Shown here piece by piece: positions 12,001 through 42,000 of a stretch of 64,000 nucleotides of DNA. A program made the position numbers. Within the stretch, counting starts at the first letter, position 1. Each line of letters begins with the position of its first letter. Source of the stretch: Longimicrobiales bacterium (GTDB lineage: Bacteria > Gemmatimonadota > Gemmatimonadetes > Longimicrobiales > Gaopeijiaceae); contig OZ242008.1 of NCBI GenBank assembly GCA_965204735.1, positions 2,304,001-2,368,000 on the forward strand. Direction: 5' to 3'.

Positions 12001-15000
12001 AGAGGAAGACCGCCGCCGTGATCGTCATCAGCAGGCAGCACACCAGCACCGAGGCGCCGGCGAAGCGGCGAGCCCGATCCGGGTCGCCGGCCCCCACCGA
12101 GGCGCCGACCATCACGGCGGCCGCCTGGGCCGCTCCCACGGCCAGCATGAAGGTGAGGGCCGCCAGGTTCAGGGCGATCTGATGGCCCGCCAAGGCCACC
12201 GGCCCGAGCCATCCCATGAAGATCCCGATCGCCCCGAAGGCGCCGAACTCCAGCACGAAGTGGAGCCCGATCGGCGCCCCCAGCCGAACCATCCGCCACA
12301 GCGGTCCCCGGGCCAGCGCCTCCCGCCGCGCCGTGCGCAGGTAGGGCCGCAGCGTCGGCCACGCCATCGCCAGGACGGCCGCGAGCATGAACCAGCGGCA
12401 GATCGCGGTGGCCCAGCCGGAGCCCACGGCCCCCATCGCCGGCGCGCCCCACTTGCCGAACACCAGGACCCAGTTGGCCAAGGCGTTGAGGCCGTTGGCC
12501 AGCACCACCACGACCACGATCGCGGCCACCTTCCCCAGCGCCTGCAACGTCTGACGCAGCAGCACGAAGCCGTAGAAGGGAAGCATCCCCGCGATCAGGG
12601 CTCGGCTGTACGCCGCCGCGATCGGCGCCACGTCGTCCGGCTGTCCCAGGACGCGCAGAACCGGCCCCGCCGTAGCCAGCATCAGCGACGAGACGGCGGT
12701 CAGGACCAGGCCGAGGACGGCGCCTCGCTGAATCGCCAGCTCGATCCCCTTCCGGTCTTCCGCGCCGAAGGCCTGGGAGACGAGGGGGTCGAGGACCATG
12801 AGGACCCCCATGCCGAAGACCGACACGCCGAAGAAGTAGAGGTTCCCCAGCGCCACCGCGGCCAGGTCGGGGGCGGAGACCCGGCCCACCATCGCCGTGT
12901 CCACCAACCCCTGCATGACCATTCCCACCTGCACCACGGCCACCGGCGCCGCGAGGGAGAGGAGCCCGCGAAGCTCCGTTGCCGTGGGGCGGAAGGCGGC
13001 AAGTCCCTTGACGGGCGGGGCGCCCGCGACGCCGGCGGGACTACTCCCCCGCATACCTCCTGGGCACCGTCACCGTGAACTCGGTGAACTCGCCTTCCTT
13101 GGTCTCGACCCGGAGGCTCCCGCCGTGCTCCTGGATGATCTCGTGGGAGATCGACAACCCCAGTCCCGTGCCCTTGGTGCCGGACTTGGTGGTGAAGAAG
13201 GGGTCGAAGATCTTCTTCACCACCTTCTCGGGAATGCCCGTGCCGTTGTCCCGGATCGACACCAGCACGCGGTCCTCCTCGCCCTTGGTGCGGAGCACGA
13301 CCGTGGGCGAGTAGCCCTCTTCGCCGCTCTTGCGCCGGATCTCCGTCGCCTGGCAGGCGTTGGTGATGACGTTGAGGAAGACGCGGCTCAGGTCCCTGGC
13401 GATCGCGTGGACCTTGCCGGCGTCCTCGTCGAACTCCCGTTCGATCGTCACGTTGAACATCGAGTCGGAGGCCCGGAGCCCGTGGTAGGCCAGCTTGGCG
13501 TACTCGTCCAGCACCTGGTTCACGTCTACTTCCTCGGGCTGTCCCGCCTCCTCCCGGGAGTGGGCCAGCATCCCCTCCACGATCCGGTTGGCGCGCCCCC
13601 CGTGCTCGCGCACCTTGGTGACGTTCAGCTTCAGGTCCCCCAGGATCTCTTCCAGGTACTCGCGGTCGATCTCGCCGTTCTCGTCGTCCTCCATCTCCTC
13701 TCGGAGCTCGTCGATCAGCTCCTTCGAGAGGGCCGCGAAGTTGTTCACGAAGTTGAGCGGGTTGCGGATCTCGTGGGCGATCCCCGCGGTGAGGGCGCCC
13801 AGCGAGGCCAGCTTCTCCTGCTGGGCCACCTGCTGCTGGGTGCGCCGCAGGTTCTCCAGCGTCTCCTCCAGCGCCTCGTTCTTGGCCTGCACCTCGCTGG
13901 CCAGCTTCTCGACCAAGTTGAGGCGCTGCACCTCCAGGGCGTGCTTGCGGAAGACCTCCAGGTCCGCCGCCATGTCGGCCACTTCGTCGTCGCCAGTGAT
14001 CTCGACCTTCACCCTCAGGTCGCCCTGGGTCATGCGCCGCATGGCGTCCGAGAGGTGCTGGACCCTCGCCAGCAGCCGCTCGCCGAAGAACTTCCAGCCC
14101 ACGACGACGGCGGCGGCCACCGCCAGCACGTTGACGGTCAGGATCAGCCACCAGCCCAACCGCAGCAGCGCGCCCGAATCGGACGCGGCGGTTCGGGCCG
14201 CGCCCTCGGCGTTCCCCACCGCCTCGTTGACCTGCTCGACCAGCTCCGAACTCGTCTGGCGGTTCTGGACCAGCAACTCCTGGGAGCGCGCGATCTCCTC
14301 CAGCCACATTCGGCGGGTCGTCAGCACGCCGTCCGAGGCGCCGTCGTACAGCGCCCGCAACGCGTTCACTCGGGGCCGCAGCCGCTCGGCCAGCGCCGGG
14401 GGAACTTCGCCGAGCCCCGCCTCGAGCTGGCTGAACGCGGTGTTGAAGCGCTCCTGGTTGGCCCCCAGCTGGGTGACCAGGTCCTCCGACATCGCCTGGA
14501 ACATGACGGTGACGACCGCGCGCTGGGCGACGCGCAGGTCCACGAGCGCTCGGTGCCGGTCCAGCTCGACCTGGGCGGTCCGCGCCCCCCGGGAGGCCGG
14601 CTGGTCGGTCAGCTCCCGCAAGCCCGTGTCGATGAAGAACTCCTGGTCGTCGAGTTCGCCTTCGAGGAAGTTGGAGATGCTCAGGTCCACCGCCTCGATC
14701 TCGTCGTCGAGGGCCGCCAGCCGGGCGCCGTGCTCCAGCCTCCGGTCCACCGACGTCCTGATCTCCTCGGTCCGGGTCAAGAGGAGCCGAAGCATGGGCG
14801 CCGCGCCCTCGGTCATCCCCTCTTCCTGGGTGATGGCGGCCACCTGCTGCCCCAGGTCCTCCTCCACGGCCAGCACGGTCTGCCAGACGGTCTCCAGCGC
14901 CTCGGGCGTGTCGGCGGCGACCAGCTGGGGCGAGGCCTGGACGAGATCCGACGTGCTTCGAGCCACGGCGAAGGCGGCGACCAGGGCCGGCATGTGGCCG

Positions 15001-39000: not shown

Positions 39001-42000
39001 GAATGCCCCGGGACGACGCGTGGCGGTTCATGGAGCTCGGCCGGTTCGTGGAGCGGACCAGCCAGCAGGCGGTTCTGCTGGAGACGTGGAACGACCGCGG
39101 CCGTCGAGACGGGAGCGGGCCAGCCGCTCCGGCTTGGTCGGACCTGCTGCGGATCTGCGACGCCTACGAGCTCTACTGTCGAACCCACTCGATGGCGGTG
39201 CGCCGGGAGAAGGTCCTGGACCTGCTGATCCGCAACCCGGAAGTTCCGCGCTCGCTGCGCTTCTGCGTTCAGCGCGCCGGCGACCTGCTGGCCGGGATCG
39301 ACCCGAAGGGCGCGCGCTACCCCCTGGCCCCGCCCCATCGAGCGGCGCTGCGGCTGGCGGCCGCCGTCGAGATCGAGGCGCCGGACCGCGCCGCCGAGCC
39401 GGGAGGCGTCAGCTTCTTCGCGGCCCTGGAGCGGGACGGGGCCGCGCTTCACGACCTGATCCTGGGAAGCTACGTGGACTACCCGGCGCTGGGCGCGGCC
39501 TCGTGACCCCCTTCCCCGCCCCAACCTGCCGCTACGCGGTCGAGCACCGGATCGACTTCCGGTACGAAGCACCGGTGCGCCTCTCGGTCGCCACCCTCTA
39601 CCTGCATCCGATCCAGGACCGGGGGCAGGCGGTCCGGGAGTTCTCGCTCGTCACCGACCCTCCGGGCACGCTCTTCGAGTTCGTCGACGCCTTCGGCAAC
39701 CGGGGACACTTCATGGACCGGCCCGCCCCCCACCGCCGCATGACGATCCACGCCCGGTCCGAGGTCGAGGTGGGCCTTCCGGCGGCCGTGCCCGACCGCC
39801 TGGGCTCCGACGCTTGGGCGGCGCTGCGGCGCGTCGCGGACGCCCCCGAGTTCTGGGTAATGACTCATGCCAGCCGCTTCGTCCGGCCCCACGCCCCCGC
39901 GCTGGACGACTTCATCTCGGCCCACGGGATGTCCCCCGGGGACGACCCCGCGGCCACGGTGCAGGCGCTTCGGGCCAAGCTGCACGAGACGTTCCGCTAC
40001 GTTCCCGGCGCCACGGAGGTGGACTCGCCGATCGAGCGGATCCTGGAGACGGGCGAAGGAGTGTGCCAGGACTACGCCCACGTGATGGCGTCGATCCTCC
40101 GGAGGTGGGGCATTCCGTGCCGGTACGCGTCGGGCTACCTGGGTCCCGACGACGGCGAGGCCGCCACCGGCCAGAGCCATGCGTGGGTCGAGTGCTGGCT
40201 GCCGCAGGCGGGCTGGATCGGCTTCGATCCGACCAACGACACGGAGAGGGACGGGCGCCACGTGAGGGTGGCCGTGGGCAGGGACTACGCCGACGTTCCT
40301 CCGACCCGGGGCGTCTACCAGGGCTCCGCCGCGTCCACCCTGGACACGACGGTGGCCGTGACCCGCCGCCCCCCTTGCCCGGAGACGGGAGGCGGCACTT
40401 GCTTTGATTGACGGCCTGATGAATTTGATTGACGGTCTGATGAACCTTCCCAACCCTCTCGACCCCCAAGAAGGGCAACCTTCGCAAGATCAGGAGACCT
40501 GCAGAATGAAGAGGATATCCGTCGTCGGCCTGCGCTGCCTTTTCCTCGCCGGCGCGCTCGGCGCTTCGGTCCTGGGCGCGACGCCGGCCCGCGGCCAGTC
40601 CTTCGGGATCGGCGCCGACATCGTGAGCCGCTACGTCTGGCGTGGCGCCGACTTCGGCGAGTCCATGTCCATCCAGCCCTCTCTCTCGTTCACCCATGGC
40701 GGGTTCGAGGTCGGGGCTTGGGGATCGTGGTCGGTGGCCGCCGACGGCGCCGGCTCCAACGAGAGCGACCTGTGGGTCGCCTACAGCTTCGGCGCCGTGA
40801 CGATCGGCTTCACCGACTACTACTTTCCCGCACCGGATCCCGACTGGCCGAGCGGCTACGGCTTCCTGAACCGGCGGGCCCACACCTTCGAGCCGTACGT
40901 CTCCTACTCGGGCAAGGTGGACCTTCTCGCCGGCTTGGCGTTCTCCCCCGACACGGAGGATCAGGACGCCAGCCGGGAGAGCTCCCTGTACGTCGAGGCC
41001 GGGGTCCCCTTCGAGGTGGAGAGCTTCGAGGTGCGGATCCACGCGGGCGTGGTGGGAGGCGAGAGCGGATTCTACGGAACCGACGGCGCCGCCTTGGTGA
41101 ACATGGGAATCACGGTGGCCAAGCCCATCGAGATCACCGAGTCGTTCTCCCTGCCGGTGAACGTGGCCTACATCGTGAACCCGGACGCGGAACGGTCGTT
41201 CCTGGTCTTCGGCCTCAGCCTTTCGCCCTAAGCCCAGCGGGCAACCTCTGGCGACGCGTCCCCGAGCAGCTCCGACACCTCCGCGGGCAGCTCCAGGACG
41301 CGGCGCCGGAGGCAGGTCCGCGGCCGGGCCGGGAAAGTCCGCGGACCGCCTGCGGCTCGGCAGTCGGGGCGCCCGGATTCGAACCGGGGACCTCCTGCTC
41401 CCAAAGCAGGCGCGCTGCCGGGCTGCGCCACGCCCCGCCACTCGCTTCGTGGTGTCGAAACGTCGCGGATCGGGCGCCGTTGCGGTAGGCGGGGCCCTTG
41501 CGGTTGCCCTGGCGGGAGGCTTGTCGGCGCAGCCGGCCGGGGCTCGCGAGTCCCCCGCGCAGGCGGCGGACTCCGCGGCGGGTTCGGTCGCCGGGGCTTC
41601 CCTTTCGGTCCACCTCCTCACCGTGGGTCCCGGCGACCGGCTCTGGGAGCTCTTCGGCCACAACGCGCTGGTGATCCGGGACTCGACGAGCGGATACGAA
41701 GCCGCGTTCAACTACGGGATATTCGACTTCAACGCGCCCGGCTACGCCTGGCGGTTCGTTCAGGGGCGCATGACCTACTGGGTCGACGCCAGGCCGCTGG
41801 AGTCCACCTTGGCCGGCGCCCGGGCCGCGAACCGAGAGGTGTGGGCCCAGGAGCTGGCGCTGGGCGCGGAGCAGAAGGCGGAGCTGCTGCGGATGCTCCT
41901 GCTGGCGACGCGCCCCGAGAACCGGGAGTACCGCTACCACTACTACCTCGAGAACTGCTCCACCAAGCTCCGGGACGCCCTGGACGCGGTTCTCGACGGA

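Follow-up and report, generated by a model that had tools for sequence, protein, structure and literature searches.

A glnA-glnE pair joined to a partner-switching relay and amt in a Longimicrobiales bacterium hints at an undescribed nitrogen-signalling route

The protein transducer that textbooks give for GlnE is PII. In the PII/GlnD cascade of E. coli, R. rubrum and H. seropedicae, a bifunctional GlnE with both of its sites is paired with a type I glutamine synthetase (GS-I) carrying a loop tyrosine, and the Longimicrobiales locus analyzed here shares these elements. GS adenylylation independent of PII is already known, as the available excerpt of 10.64898/2026.09.02.748916 reports it for S. 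coelicolor and for the AT activity of H. seropedicae. Adenylylation of GS without PII or GlnD input is thus a feature shared with S. coelicolor, but the latter keeps GlnK and GlnD, no partner switch is named for it in that excerpt, and the GlnE studied here belongs to the alphaproteobacterial type (PRK14108). In SAR11, PII and GlnD are likewise lost while amt and glnA are kept (PMC3870248); SAR11 differs in keeping gltBD, glnE is absent from the main text of that paper, and riboswitch-like elements are indicated before amt. The present locus departs from the PII/GlnD cascade of the enteric type in that its genome has neither PII nor GlnD and in that glnE is coupled to rsbW-rsbV; furthermore, relatives of this genome carry removase-only and doubly degenerate forms of GlnE.

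Partner switches are phosphorylation switches familiar from the control of stress genes; the canonical sigma-B/sigma-F kind comes with a cognate group 3 sigma factor, in most cases encoded alongside. With RsbU/RsbV/RsbW (sigma B) and SpoIIE/SpoIIAA/SpoIIAB, including the systems with REC-PP2C inputs, the locus shares a PP2C phosphatase, a STAS protein with a conserved serine and a GHKL serine kinase. It differs from them by its linkage to nitrogen genes, by an input made of a binding protein and a TorS-like kinase, and by having no SigB/F-type sigma in the locus or the genome. In TorS-TorT and LuxQ-LuxP, the gene of a membrane kinase whose periplasmic domain is large lies next to that of a transporter-less binding protein. 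The same pairing is present here, but the binding protein is of the LivK family and the cognate receiver is part of a phosphatase, not of a transcription factor. Non-canonical systems with STAS-only outputs, in which serine phosphorylation decides how the STAS protein acts on a target that is unknown or not a sigma factor, are found in Vibrio fischeri (SypA/SypE), Bordetella (BtrU/V/W) and Pseudomonas (PA3347); in the available part of PMC8256260, none of them is described as having nitrogen assimilation or a metabolic modifying enzyme as its target. The Anbu operon, whose Anbu product is highly expressed under nitrogen starvation, begins with the same ATP-grasp, alpha-E and transglutaminase genes in the same order (PMC6376114), whereas here the cluster follows amt and its fourth gene is Gcw_chp, not Anbu. 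A search of mostly open-access papers returned nothing describing glnE wired to a STAS protein or to a partner switch; PMC9739823 mentions glnE and RsbV once each.

The window is a stretch of 64,000 nucleotides from a Longimicrobiales genome (G000) consisting of one contig and 98.15% complete. In this window, a relay operon is divergent from glnA-glnE-rsbW-rsbV, and the porin, giant and amt genes follow to the right (Table 1). Gene coordinates, profile matches and overlaps bore out the order of this nitrogen island given in the initial annotation. The latter had taken positions 13041 to 41231 as one unit, from which the 10.5-kb giant gene has to be excluded because it is one of at least 12 close paralogues and is missing from the island in all three genomes of the same genus (G230, G193 and G254), where porin and amt are directly adjacent. 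This gene is a strain-level insertion unrelated to the island. Its membership of the module, Latescibacterota-like relay loci also bordering a gene of 3.5k aa, was rejected: the two such genes scanned encode polyketide synthases, neither of which matches the giant protein of the window. The porin is a frequent neighbour of rsbV across loci, and the MATE gene adjoins the kinase gene in loci of genera g1, g3 and g13, not in G013, G052 or g2.

Table 1. Positions in the window of the island genes, promoter-like sites and bordering features
Feature	Position	Strand	Basis
MATE transporter, last gene of relay operon, peripheral; overlaps kinase stop	11648..13054	-	Pfam MatE, TIGR00797
Membrane histidine kinase (HK): TorS-like periplasmic sensor, HAMP, HisKA (His490), HATPase	13041..15242	-	Domain matches
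LivK-family periplasmic binding protein	15239..16516	-	Peripla_BP_6
REC-SpoIIE: receiver (Asp57) fused to SpoIIE/PP2C phosphatase (Asp199, Asp319, Asp371/372)	16513..17667	-	Domains, residues
Sigma-70-type promoter-like site upstream of glnA, 17-bp spacer	17908..17936	+	Read by eye
glnA, type I glutamine synthetase	18011..19420	+	TIGR00653; adenylylation-loop Tyr398
glnE, bifunctional adenylyl-removase/adenylyltransferase	19476..22433	+	PRK14108, motifs
RsbW/SpoIIAB-like serine kinase	22430..22909	+	N, G1 and G2 boxes present
RsbV-like STAS protein, phospho-acceptor Ser55	22906..23238	+	TIGR00377 above cut-off
OprO/OprP-like porin	23464..24531	-	Porin_O_P weak (E 1e-4); synteny
3503-aa cadherin-repeat surface protein, outside unit	24631..35142	-	Domains, paralogues
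Sigma-70-type promoter-like site upstream of amt, 16-bp spacer	35473..35500	+	Read by eye
amt, 'marine subtype' ammonium transporter	35585..37006	+	TIGR03644
Circularly permuted ATP-grasp protein (CP-ATP-grasp)	37020..38504	+	Domain match
alpha-E protein	38529..39506	+	Domain match
Transglutaminase-like protein	39503..40411	+	Domain match
Gcw_chp outer-membrane protein	40506..41231	+	Domain match
tRNA-Pro, just past right end of island	41363..41437	-	

The GlnE protein, initially described as proteobacterial-type, scores 956 bits with PRK14108, above the equivalog cut-off of 724. In each nucleotidyltransferase domain, the seven motif residues (GKxG...DxD, RLRP, WE, KxxxGG), which we take to be the catalytic ones, are all intact. 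GlnE aligns to the E. coli structures 1V4A and 3K7D, and its single-chain model has an ordinary confident fold (pLDDT 87.9). Judged by sequence, the window GlnE is bifunctional with both sites intact, and its predicted substrate, a GS-I with the loop tyrosine, is encoded next to it. The glnA product scores 646 bits against the TIGR00653 cut-off of 429; its likeness to alphaproteobacterial enzymes was confirmed, at 61-66% identity with GS-I from five Rhodospirillales-type genomes instead of the 64-67% first given. Promoter-like hexamers similar to those before glnA and amt were seen by eye in several relatives, and both putative promoters would be of the housekeeping type. No sigma-54 promoter was seen by eye upstream of either gene; the genome does encode sigma-54.

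As initially claimed, neither PII (searched to E<=10, the control being detected in 13 of 14), nor GlnD, nor the Glu_synthase and GXGXG domains of glutamate synthase (GOGAT) were found in G000. The genome also encodes a type III GS, a large NAD-GDH and a leucine-dehydrogenase-like gene. Its sole amt (TIGR03644, 499 bits, just under the cut-off of 514) has no glnK beside it, so that a glnK-amtB module is not present. Since PII, GlnD and GOGAT are gone in this clade, no candidate protein transducer other than the relay was found. In the absence of GOGAT, moreover, GS acts only as a drain on glutamate and ATP, so that control by amino-nitrogen from outside would be favoured. The loss of PII is not supported as the explanation of the coupling, and a gene-for-gene co-occurrence of the two was rejected: PII is missing from all 20 genomes of genus g3, with or without glnE, and is present in every host of the same GlnE subfamily in other groups (14/14 gammaproteobacterial, 15/15 spirochaete and 5/5 Latescibacterota-like), GlnD being present in four of the five checked.

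The sensor part of the histidine kinase matches TIGR02956 over residues 56-479 (E 2e-39, below the cut-off), with hydrophobic segments at 41 and 357. For the binding protein, the best solved match is 4KV7 (E 5e-63). The 'amino-acid-binding' description in the initial annotation is a family label: the fold family matches that of LivK/LivJ, which bind Leu/Ile/Val and serve an ABC transporter, but the PRK15404 score is 44.5 against a cut-off of 477 and no permease genes are adjacent. Both ends of its gene overlap a neighbour, the start lying across the stop of REC-SpoIIE and the stop across the start of HK; this protein is a probable co-receptor of the kinase. Likewise, ATGA overlaps join the rsbW start to the glnE stop and the rsbV start to the rsbW stop. 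The parts of the partner switch (PP2C phosphatase, STAS phospho-serine and RsbW-type kinase) are complete with their catalytic residues, and Ser55 of RsbV is invariant in the 54 aligned sequences. No cognate SigB/F/G or FliA-type sigma was found among the 20 sigma-70 region-2 matches of the genome, three of which score best as RpoD/RpoS-like (below the SigBFG and FliA cut-offs), the rest being ECF-sized or ECF-like by length, with two scanned.

A search of 50 family genomes found two-domain GlnE in seven, and one of 200 genomes found full-length matches in nine, plus one divergent genome; GlnE is therefore not confined, as first proposed, to G013, G109 and G052. Two divergent GlnE-like matches (31-33%) were seen in G212. 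Single-domain GlnE-family matches in 12 other family genomes are doubtful as parts of the island, six of these loci having shown no other island gene. Among the loci examined, rsbW directly follows glnE in all 16 family genomes with a full-length gene, and the order glnE-rsbW-rsbV is found in 15 of them; in the rearranged G052, rsbW lies after glnE and rsbV after glnA. These gene-order counts are not independent, because the genomes are related.

The link goes beyond this one gene order, on which alone it had been thought to rest. In Gammaproteobacteria, an orthologous STAS gene directly follows glnE in 9 of 14 loci and is 2.3 kb away in another, with no rsbW or glnA and in at least four different flanking contexts. 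These glnE-linked STAS proteins fall in one clade with RsbV of the island (support 90), separate from the STAS proteins that the same hosts encode in their relay loci. As controls, STAS or RsbW was found in none of 30 alphaproteobacterial-type glnE loci, and glnE or glnA in none of 77 generic STAS loci (38 of them of at least 6 kb). Our leading explanation, held tentatively and at somewhat less than an even chance, is that a partner switch responding to an extracellular signal acts on GlnE through the STAS protein after translation, doing a PII-like job in parallel to PII.

Co-transfer of neighbours can explain such linkage without any interaction. By a mere accident of gene order, glnA-glnE would have been inserted between the promoter of an unrelated relay and rsbW, and later transfers would have taken the neighbours along. 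REC-SpoIIE is indeed directly divergent from rsbW-rsbV in g2 and in many g3 genomes, and the GlnE tree shows a single subfamily spread over phyla with weak internal support, as block transfers predict. We nevertheless consider this explanation improbable, since relay parts stand beside different nitrogen genes (amt, CP-ATP-grasp, glnA, glnE) after separate rearrangements, while any of these genes was found in only 2 of the 77 generic STAS loci, one of which is of the same relay type.

Several observations count against direct control of GlnE by the STAS protein. The objection that the relay occurs in relatives without glnE holds, a full glnE being missing from 14 of the 20 relay loci fetched; the eight genus-g2 loci showed none of the nitrogen genes over a distance of about 10 kb from the relay. 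Conversely, this GlnE subfamily has no STAS orthologue in 18 hosts (15/15 spirochaete and 3/14 gammaproteobacterial), where it is still conserved (dN/dS 0.16-0.17, two pairs), and the other hosts have PII. Only three GlnE positions track the presence of STAS, scattered and not clustered, in a low-power comparison of 30 with 13 related sequences. GlnE is also able to function with no protein regulator (10.64898/2026.09.02.748916).

The relay could instead sense nitrogen and act elsewhere, a serious possibility that we would place appreciably below even: RsbW would sequester a group 1/2 or ECF sigma, or the STAS would act on Amt or the ATP-grasp cluster, GlnE being autonomous (glutamine-activated transferase, constitutive removase) and merely co-transcribed. 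The relay loci without full glnE fit this reading, as does rsbW-rsbV heading an amt-ATP-grasp operon, away from glnE, in all five Latescibacterota-like genomes. Of 10 gammaproteobacterial relay loci, moreover, four have the relay beside CP-ATP-grasp/alpha-E, and one metagenome locus (L366) has it beside amt. The three group 1/2 sigmas and the ECF-type sigmas of G000 would offer targets; the available text of PMC8256260 describes a Chlamydia switch targeting the housekeeping sigma, and that of 10.64898/2026.09.02.748916 an autonomous GlnE in R. rubrum, H. seropedicae and S. coelicolor. However, the island loci yielded no sigma gene, and this reading leaves unexplained the lone STAS behind glnE in Gammaproteobacteria, where neither rsbW nor a phosphatase accompanies it and the hosts' relay has its own, different STAS. 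It also leaves unexplained the conservation of degenerate GlnE described below.

In all 14 gammaproteobacterial copies, the removase site is intact (7/7) and the transferase site is lost (0-2/7). As a second, native GlnE is present in the five hosts checked, the imported copy is probably kept for its removase function. In seven relatives that keep glnE before rsbW, no type I GS was found. In six of these, glnE is open with both sites degenerate (3-4/7 and 0-3/7); the dN/dS of the N-domain is 0.13-0.20 (six pairs among five genomes) vs 0.13-0.38 for intact pairs. Such purifying selection without type I GS points to a non-catalytic role. In G100 glnE is broken, and only 134 codons are left in G034, which again counts against direct control of GlnE by the STAS protein.

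This selection on a full-length GlnE, always directly before rsbW, could also mean that the coupling runs in reverse: GlnE would be the input, binding glutamine or a nucleotide and sequestering or releasing the STAS or RsbW, in order to feed internal nitrogen status to the switch, the sensor role alone being left in the relatives without GS-I. According to the available excerpt of 10.64898/2026.09.02.748916, glutamine sensing resides in the C-domain of GlnE in E. coli and H. seropedicae. However, conservation in the degenerate copies is lowest in the C-domain (37-40% identity with the window GlnE, vs 61-64% for the N-domain), the residues retained in the N-site could serve a new substrate instead, and most g3 relatives dropped glnE yet kept the relay. 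We regard this reverse direction as unlikely.

For direct control through the STAS protein, the following scheme may be proposed. The binding protein would present an outside ligand to the TorS-like kinase, which would phosphorylate the receiver of REC-SpoIIE. As follows from the protein families, RsbW would phosphorylate the STAS serine and the REC-SpoIIE phosphatase would reverse it, together setting the state of Ser55. One STAS form would bind GlnE, most likely gating its adenylyl-removing activity and hence the amount of active GS; Amt and the ATP-grasp cluster may be additional outputs. The module would have arisen alongside PII and then moved between lineages, PII, GlnD and GOGAT being gone from this clade. 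The tie between the partner switch and nitrogen control, proposed at the outset, is strengthened in that the relay is associated with nitrogen genes across several phyla and that the STAS travels with glnE; direct control of GlnE or Amt is what we infer from this.

In this scheme, possible but with slightly less than even confidence, phosphorylated STAS would be a PII analogue in a mobile module carrying an extracellular nitrogen signal directly to GlnE, perhaps to Amt. The module would have spread among Gemmatimonadota, Latescibacterota and Gammaproteobacteria. It would have made PII dispensable in one clade and given rise both to a removase-only second GlnE and to a non-catalytic GlnE that persists as a binding partner. 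The question addressed is how GlnE is controlled where PII plays no part, e.g. in actinobacteria. The system is amenable to in vitro work, with four small soluble proteins and GS, and whatever the mechanism, the natural GlnE series (bifunctional, removase-only second copy, doubly degenerate but conserved) is suited to dissecting the mutual control of the two domains. If true, the partner switch would be a second, unrelated transducer for GlnE and would connect the cell's surroundings to GS activity, and GlnE would be the first metabolic-enzyme target of a stand-alone STAS protein within the literature surveyed. The pairing of glnE with a partner switch, recurring in other phyla, hints at an undescribed nitrogen-signalling route.

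The core of the island is formed by two divergent operons, and the gene order given in the initial annotation was confirmed.

Coordinates of the core genes of the island in the window
Feature	Position	Strand
REC-SpoIIE	16513-17667	minus
LivK-family binding protein	15239-16516	minus
TorS-like histidine kinase	13041-15242	minus
glnA	18011-19420	plus
glnE	19476-22433	plus
rsbW	22430-22909	plus
rsbV	22906-23238	plus

On the minus strand, the ends of the REC-SpoIIE, binding protein, kinase and MATE genes mutually overlap, and on the plus strand ATGA overlaps occur at both the glnE/rsbW and rsbW/rsbV junctions. 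Downstream of rsbV are found a porin gene, an insertion encoding a 3503-aa protein, amt, the CP-ATP-grasp, alpha-E, transglutaminase and Gcw_chp genes and a tRNA-Pro. The kinase, the receiver, the phosphatase, RsbW, the STAS protein (Ser55), the glutamine synthetase (GS, Tyr398) and both GlnE domains all have the catalytic residues expected of them. Since the third-codon-position GC of the island genes (0.83-0.95) resembles that of the flanking genes (0.93), the island is not a recent arrival.

Inspection by eye revealed housekeeping-type promoter-like sites before glnA and amt. Upstream of glnA (window 17826-17915) there are two similar 25-base direct repeats, the second overlapping a -35-like hexamer; they were not seen in the intergenic regions of relatives. 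Three imperfect copies of a GC-rich unit of about 45 bases, with no match elsewhere in the genome, lie between rsbV and the porin gene (window 23239-23463). ARAGORN predicts a minus-strand tRNA-Sec (window 57073-57169).

The host genome, G000 (4.14 Mb, 69% GC, one contig, 98.15% complete), was searched for PII, GlnD and glutamate synthase domains and none was found, as the initial annotation had stated. It carries a single amt and a single glnE, together with a type III GS, a large NAD-GDH, sigma-54 and a gene which, from its motifs, we take to be leucine-dehydrogenase-like. A second, unrelated rsbV/rsbW/GAF-SpoIIE set, located at about 570 kb amid housekeeping genes (L249:10455-12864), shares only 27-32% identity with the island proteins. 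The genome gave 20 sigma-70 matches, of which five were scanned and the rest judged ECF-like by length; three resemble RpoD/RpoS, and no match looks like SigB/F/G or FliA.

The 3503-aa protein (24631-35142) is a surface protein, and just upstream of its gene (window 35180-35207) there is a run of 28 G, which reads as poly-C in the coding direction. It has eleven other paralogues at 72-90% identity over at least 2800 aa, and the largest open frames exceed 13,000 aa. Of the 16 open frames of at least 3000 aa in the genome, 12 carry a coding-strand poly-C tract of 16-33 bases at most about 1.1 kb from their start; the genome has 27 G/C runs at least 12 bases long, and these tracts make up 12 of them. 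The giant frames look like a phase-variable adhesin repertoire of about 297 kb. From taxon names and giant surface proteins, we presume that the lineages of G000 and its closest relatives are sponge-associated.

The initial annotation had GlnE in only three of 30 family genomes. This proved too narrow, as the two-domain enzyme was found in 7/50 family genomes, versus 0/100 from two other families (the unpublished genomes G002, G030, G081, G095 and G147 belong to the latter; they enter order-wide tallies only, such as this one, and none of them carries a claim by itself). Full-length glnE was examined in 16 distinct genomes, nine with glnA (G000, G013, G052, G109, G193, G226, G230, G251, G254) and seven without (G040, G073, G100, G121, G350, G351, G352), and rsbW directly follows glnE in all 16. 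Even in G052, where the island is shuffled, rsbW follows glnE and rsbV follows glnA. In addition, G212 (a family genome, 76% complete) contains two divergent GlnE-like genes, on contigs C433 and C333, with 31-33% identity.

PII was detected in 19/50 family genomes and in no island genome searched (those other than G193, G226, G230, G251 and G254). As it was found in 0/20 genomes of genus g3, with or without glnE, the loss of PII is clade-wide and does not go gene for gene with the island. A stand-alone glutamate-synthase FMN-domain protein (open frames of about 560-700 aa) occurs in 8/20 g3 genomes, none of which is among the four with glnE.

A scan of species genomes for GlnE, of which the best 80 of 363 matches (76 loci) were kept, delineated a subfamily sharing 51-86% identity. 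Its loci come from Longimicrobiales, Spirochaetia (15), Latescibacterota-like genomes (5) and Gammaproteobacteria (14); next in line are 30 alphaproteobacterial-type loci at 40-45%. Two of the five Latescibacterota-like genomes are titled Gemmatimonadaceae and group in the tree with the other three. In this tree, computed without L039, the subfamily stem is long (1.04, FastTree support 0.93) and the internal order is poorly resolved. Within the best 80 matches, all 34 non-Longimicrobiales hosts of the subfamily possess PII; GlnD was present in 4/5 of those checked. The proposed coupling of nitrogen genes to a partner switch was partly borne out, as a recurrent linkage across phyla but not as a stop-gap for PII loss, since the hosts elsewhere have PII.

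Among these 80 matches, a STAS gene directly follows glnE in 9/14 gammaproteobacterial loci (gaps of 7-97 bp); one further STAS gene lies at 2.3 kb, one elsewhere in the genome, and no orthologue was found in 3/14 hosts. The other neighbours vary. The island RsbV clade (support 90) takes in the glnE-linked STAS proteins, while the relay-locus STAS proteins of the same hosts lie outside it. Spirochaetes have no STAS orthologue (best matches 32-37%). The relay, made up of REC-SpoIIE, the binding protein and the kinase, was present in 8/10 gammaproteobacterial, 4/4 spirochaete and 3/3 Latescibacterota-like fetched loci, with CP-ATP-grasp or alpha-E within 10 kb in 4/10 gammaproteobacterial loci and amt in 1/4 spirochaete loci. 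All five Latescibacterota-like genomes have rsbW-rsbV ahead of amt and the CP-ATP-grasp, alpha-E and transglutaminase genes, with glnA-glnE elsewhere. As controls, STAS or RsbW was found at 0/30 alphaproteobacterial-type glnE loci among the best 80 matches; at 77 generic STAS loci, many of them short, glnE or glnA was found at none and amt or CP-ATP-grasp at two. A chance linkage of relay and glnE seems very unlikely, and the relay very probably has to do with nitrogen. In four gammaproteobacterial loci (L289, L292, L298, L299), the relay kinase gene is followed by formate-dehydrogenase-like, NAD-linked molybdopterin dehydrogenase genes, scanned for L289 and assigned by matching sizes for the others. 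In genus g2, a formate-tetrahydrofolate ligase gene follows the porin gene. There may be a link to the metabolism of formate or C1 units.

For 52 GlnE sequences, the catalytic state of each domain was scored at seven motif positions. The 16 copies whose cognate glnA is a direct neighbour or lies within the same island (nine from Longimicrobiales, five from Latescibacterota-like genomes and two from spirochaetes) all scored 7/7 in both domains, as did 8/8 alphaproteobacterial controls. All 14 gammaproteobacterial copies among the best 80 matches (L156-L159, L161-L168, L175, L178) keep a 7/7 removase and score 0-2/7 for the transferase. A second, native GlnE occurs in 5/5 of their hosts checked, and a GS-I with the loop tyrosine in 4/4. 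The imported copy appears to be a natural removase-only GlnE beside the native enzyme. Eight spirochaete copies away from glnA scored 7/7 (removase) and 3-6/7 (transferase). Six open copies in genomes lacking type I GS (L170-L173, L037 and L039, from G350, G351, G352, G121, G073 and G040) scored 3-4/7 (removase) and 0-3/7 (transferase); for L039, the alignment covered only part of the C-domain. In G100 glnE is broken, and G034 keeps a 134-codon remnant.

Pairwise dN/dS values (NG86) are rough, as some branches are common to several pairs and dS is biased by the high GC content. For the N- and C-domains, respectively, they were 0.13-0.20 and 0.19-0.32 in degenerate copies (six pairs among five), 0.13-0.38 and 0.17-0.50 in intact copies (six pairs), 0.11-0.22 and 0.22-0.34 in gammaproteobacterial copies (eight pairs), and 0.28 and 0.57 in a pair that includes the broken gene of G100. 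Since all these values, though rough, are far from 1, a substrate-less GlnE with damaged sites is still selected for something, and the degenerate full-length copies in GS-I-less genomes are under purifying selection.

As the simplest account, we tentatively propose that the partner switch is physically linked to GlnE, the STAS protein gating its removase activity in the manner of PII-UMP in E. coli. This would cover the lone STAS gene behind glnE as well as the copies reduced to the removase and the degenerate ones that are conserved. A search for residues of GlnE that track the presence of STAS yielded nothing. The main rival, in which the relay responds to nitrogen but has another output and GlnE is autonomous, is a possibility to be taken seriously, although doubtful: glnE without STAS is common and so is the relay without glnE, which, as the initial annotation had recognized, occurs in relatives; of 20 fetched rsbW loci, 14 have the whole relay without full glnE, five the full island and one is unrelated. 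It is unlikely that GlnE instead serves as an input to the switch. Beyond the observed order, overlaps, residues, absences, distributions and selection, we infer the ligand, the phosphotransfer partners, any binding to GlnE or Amt, and the direction of control.

According to one source (10.64898/2026.09.02.748916), PII is needed for both GlnE activities in E. coli, AR seems constitutive in R. rubrum, AT is glutamine-sensing and GlnB-independent in H. seropedicae, and in S. coelicolor GlnE works independently of both PII and GlnD; adenylylation without PII is therefore not new. Other papers describe SAR11 without a PII network (PMC3870248), possible non-sigma targets of STAS-only proteins (PMC8256260) and an ATP-grasp/alpha-E/transglutaminase/Anbu operon tied to nitrogen starvation, its function unconfirmed (PMC6376114). 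No paper joining GlnE with a STAS protein or partner switch was found in a literature search that left most subscription journals outside. Every part of the island comes from a known family; the novelty lies in the wiring and in the one-sided and degenerate variants of GlnE. The reading in the initial annotation is partly supported and shifts from a stop-gap for PII loss in one genome to a mobile, nitrogen-linked partner switch which accompanies a distinct subfamily of GlnE, in PII-bearing cells too.
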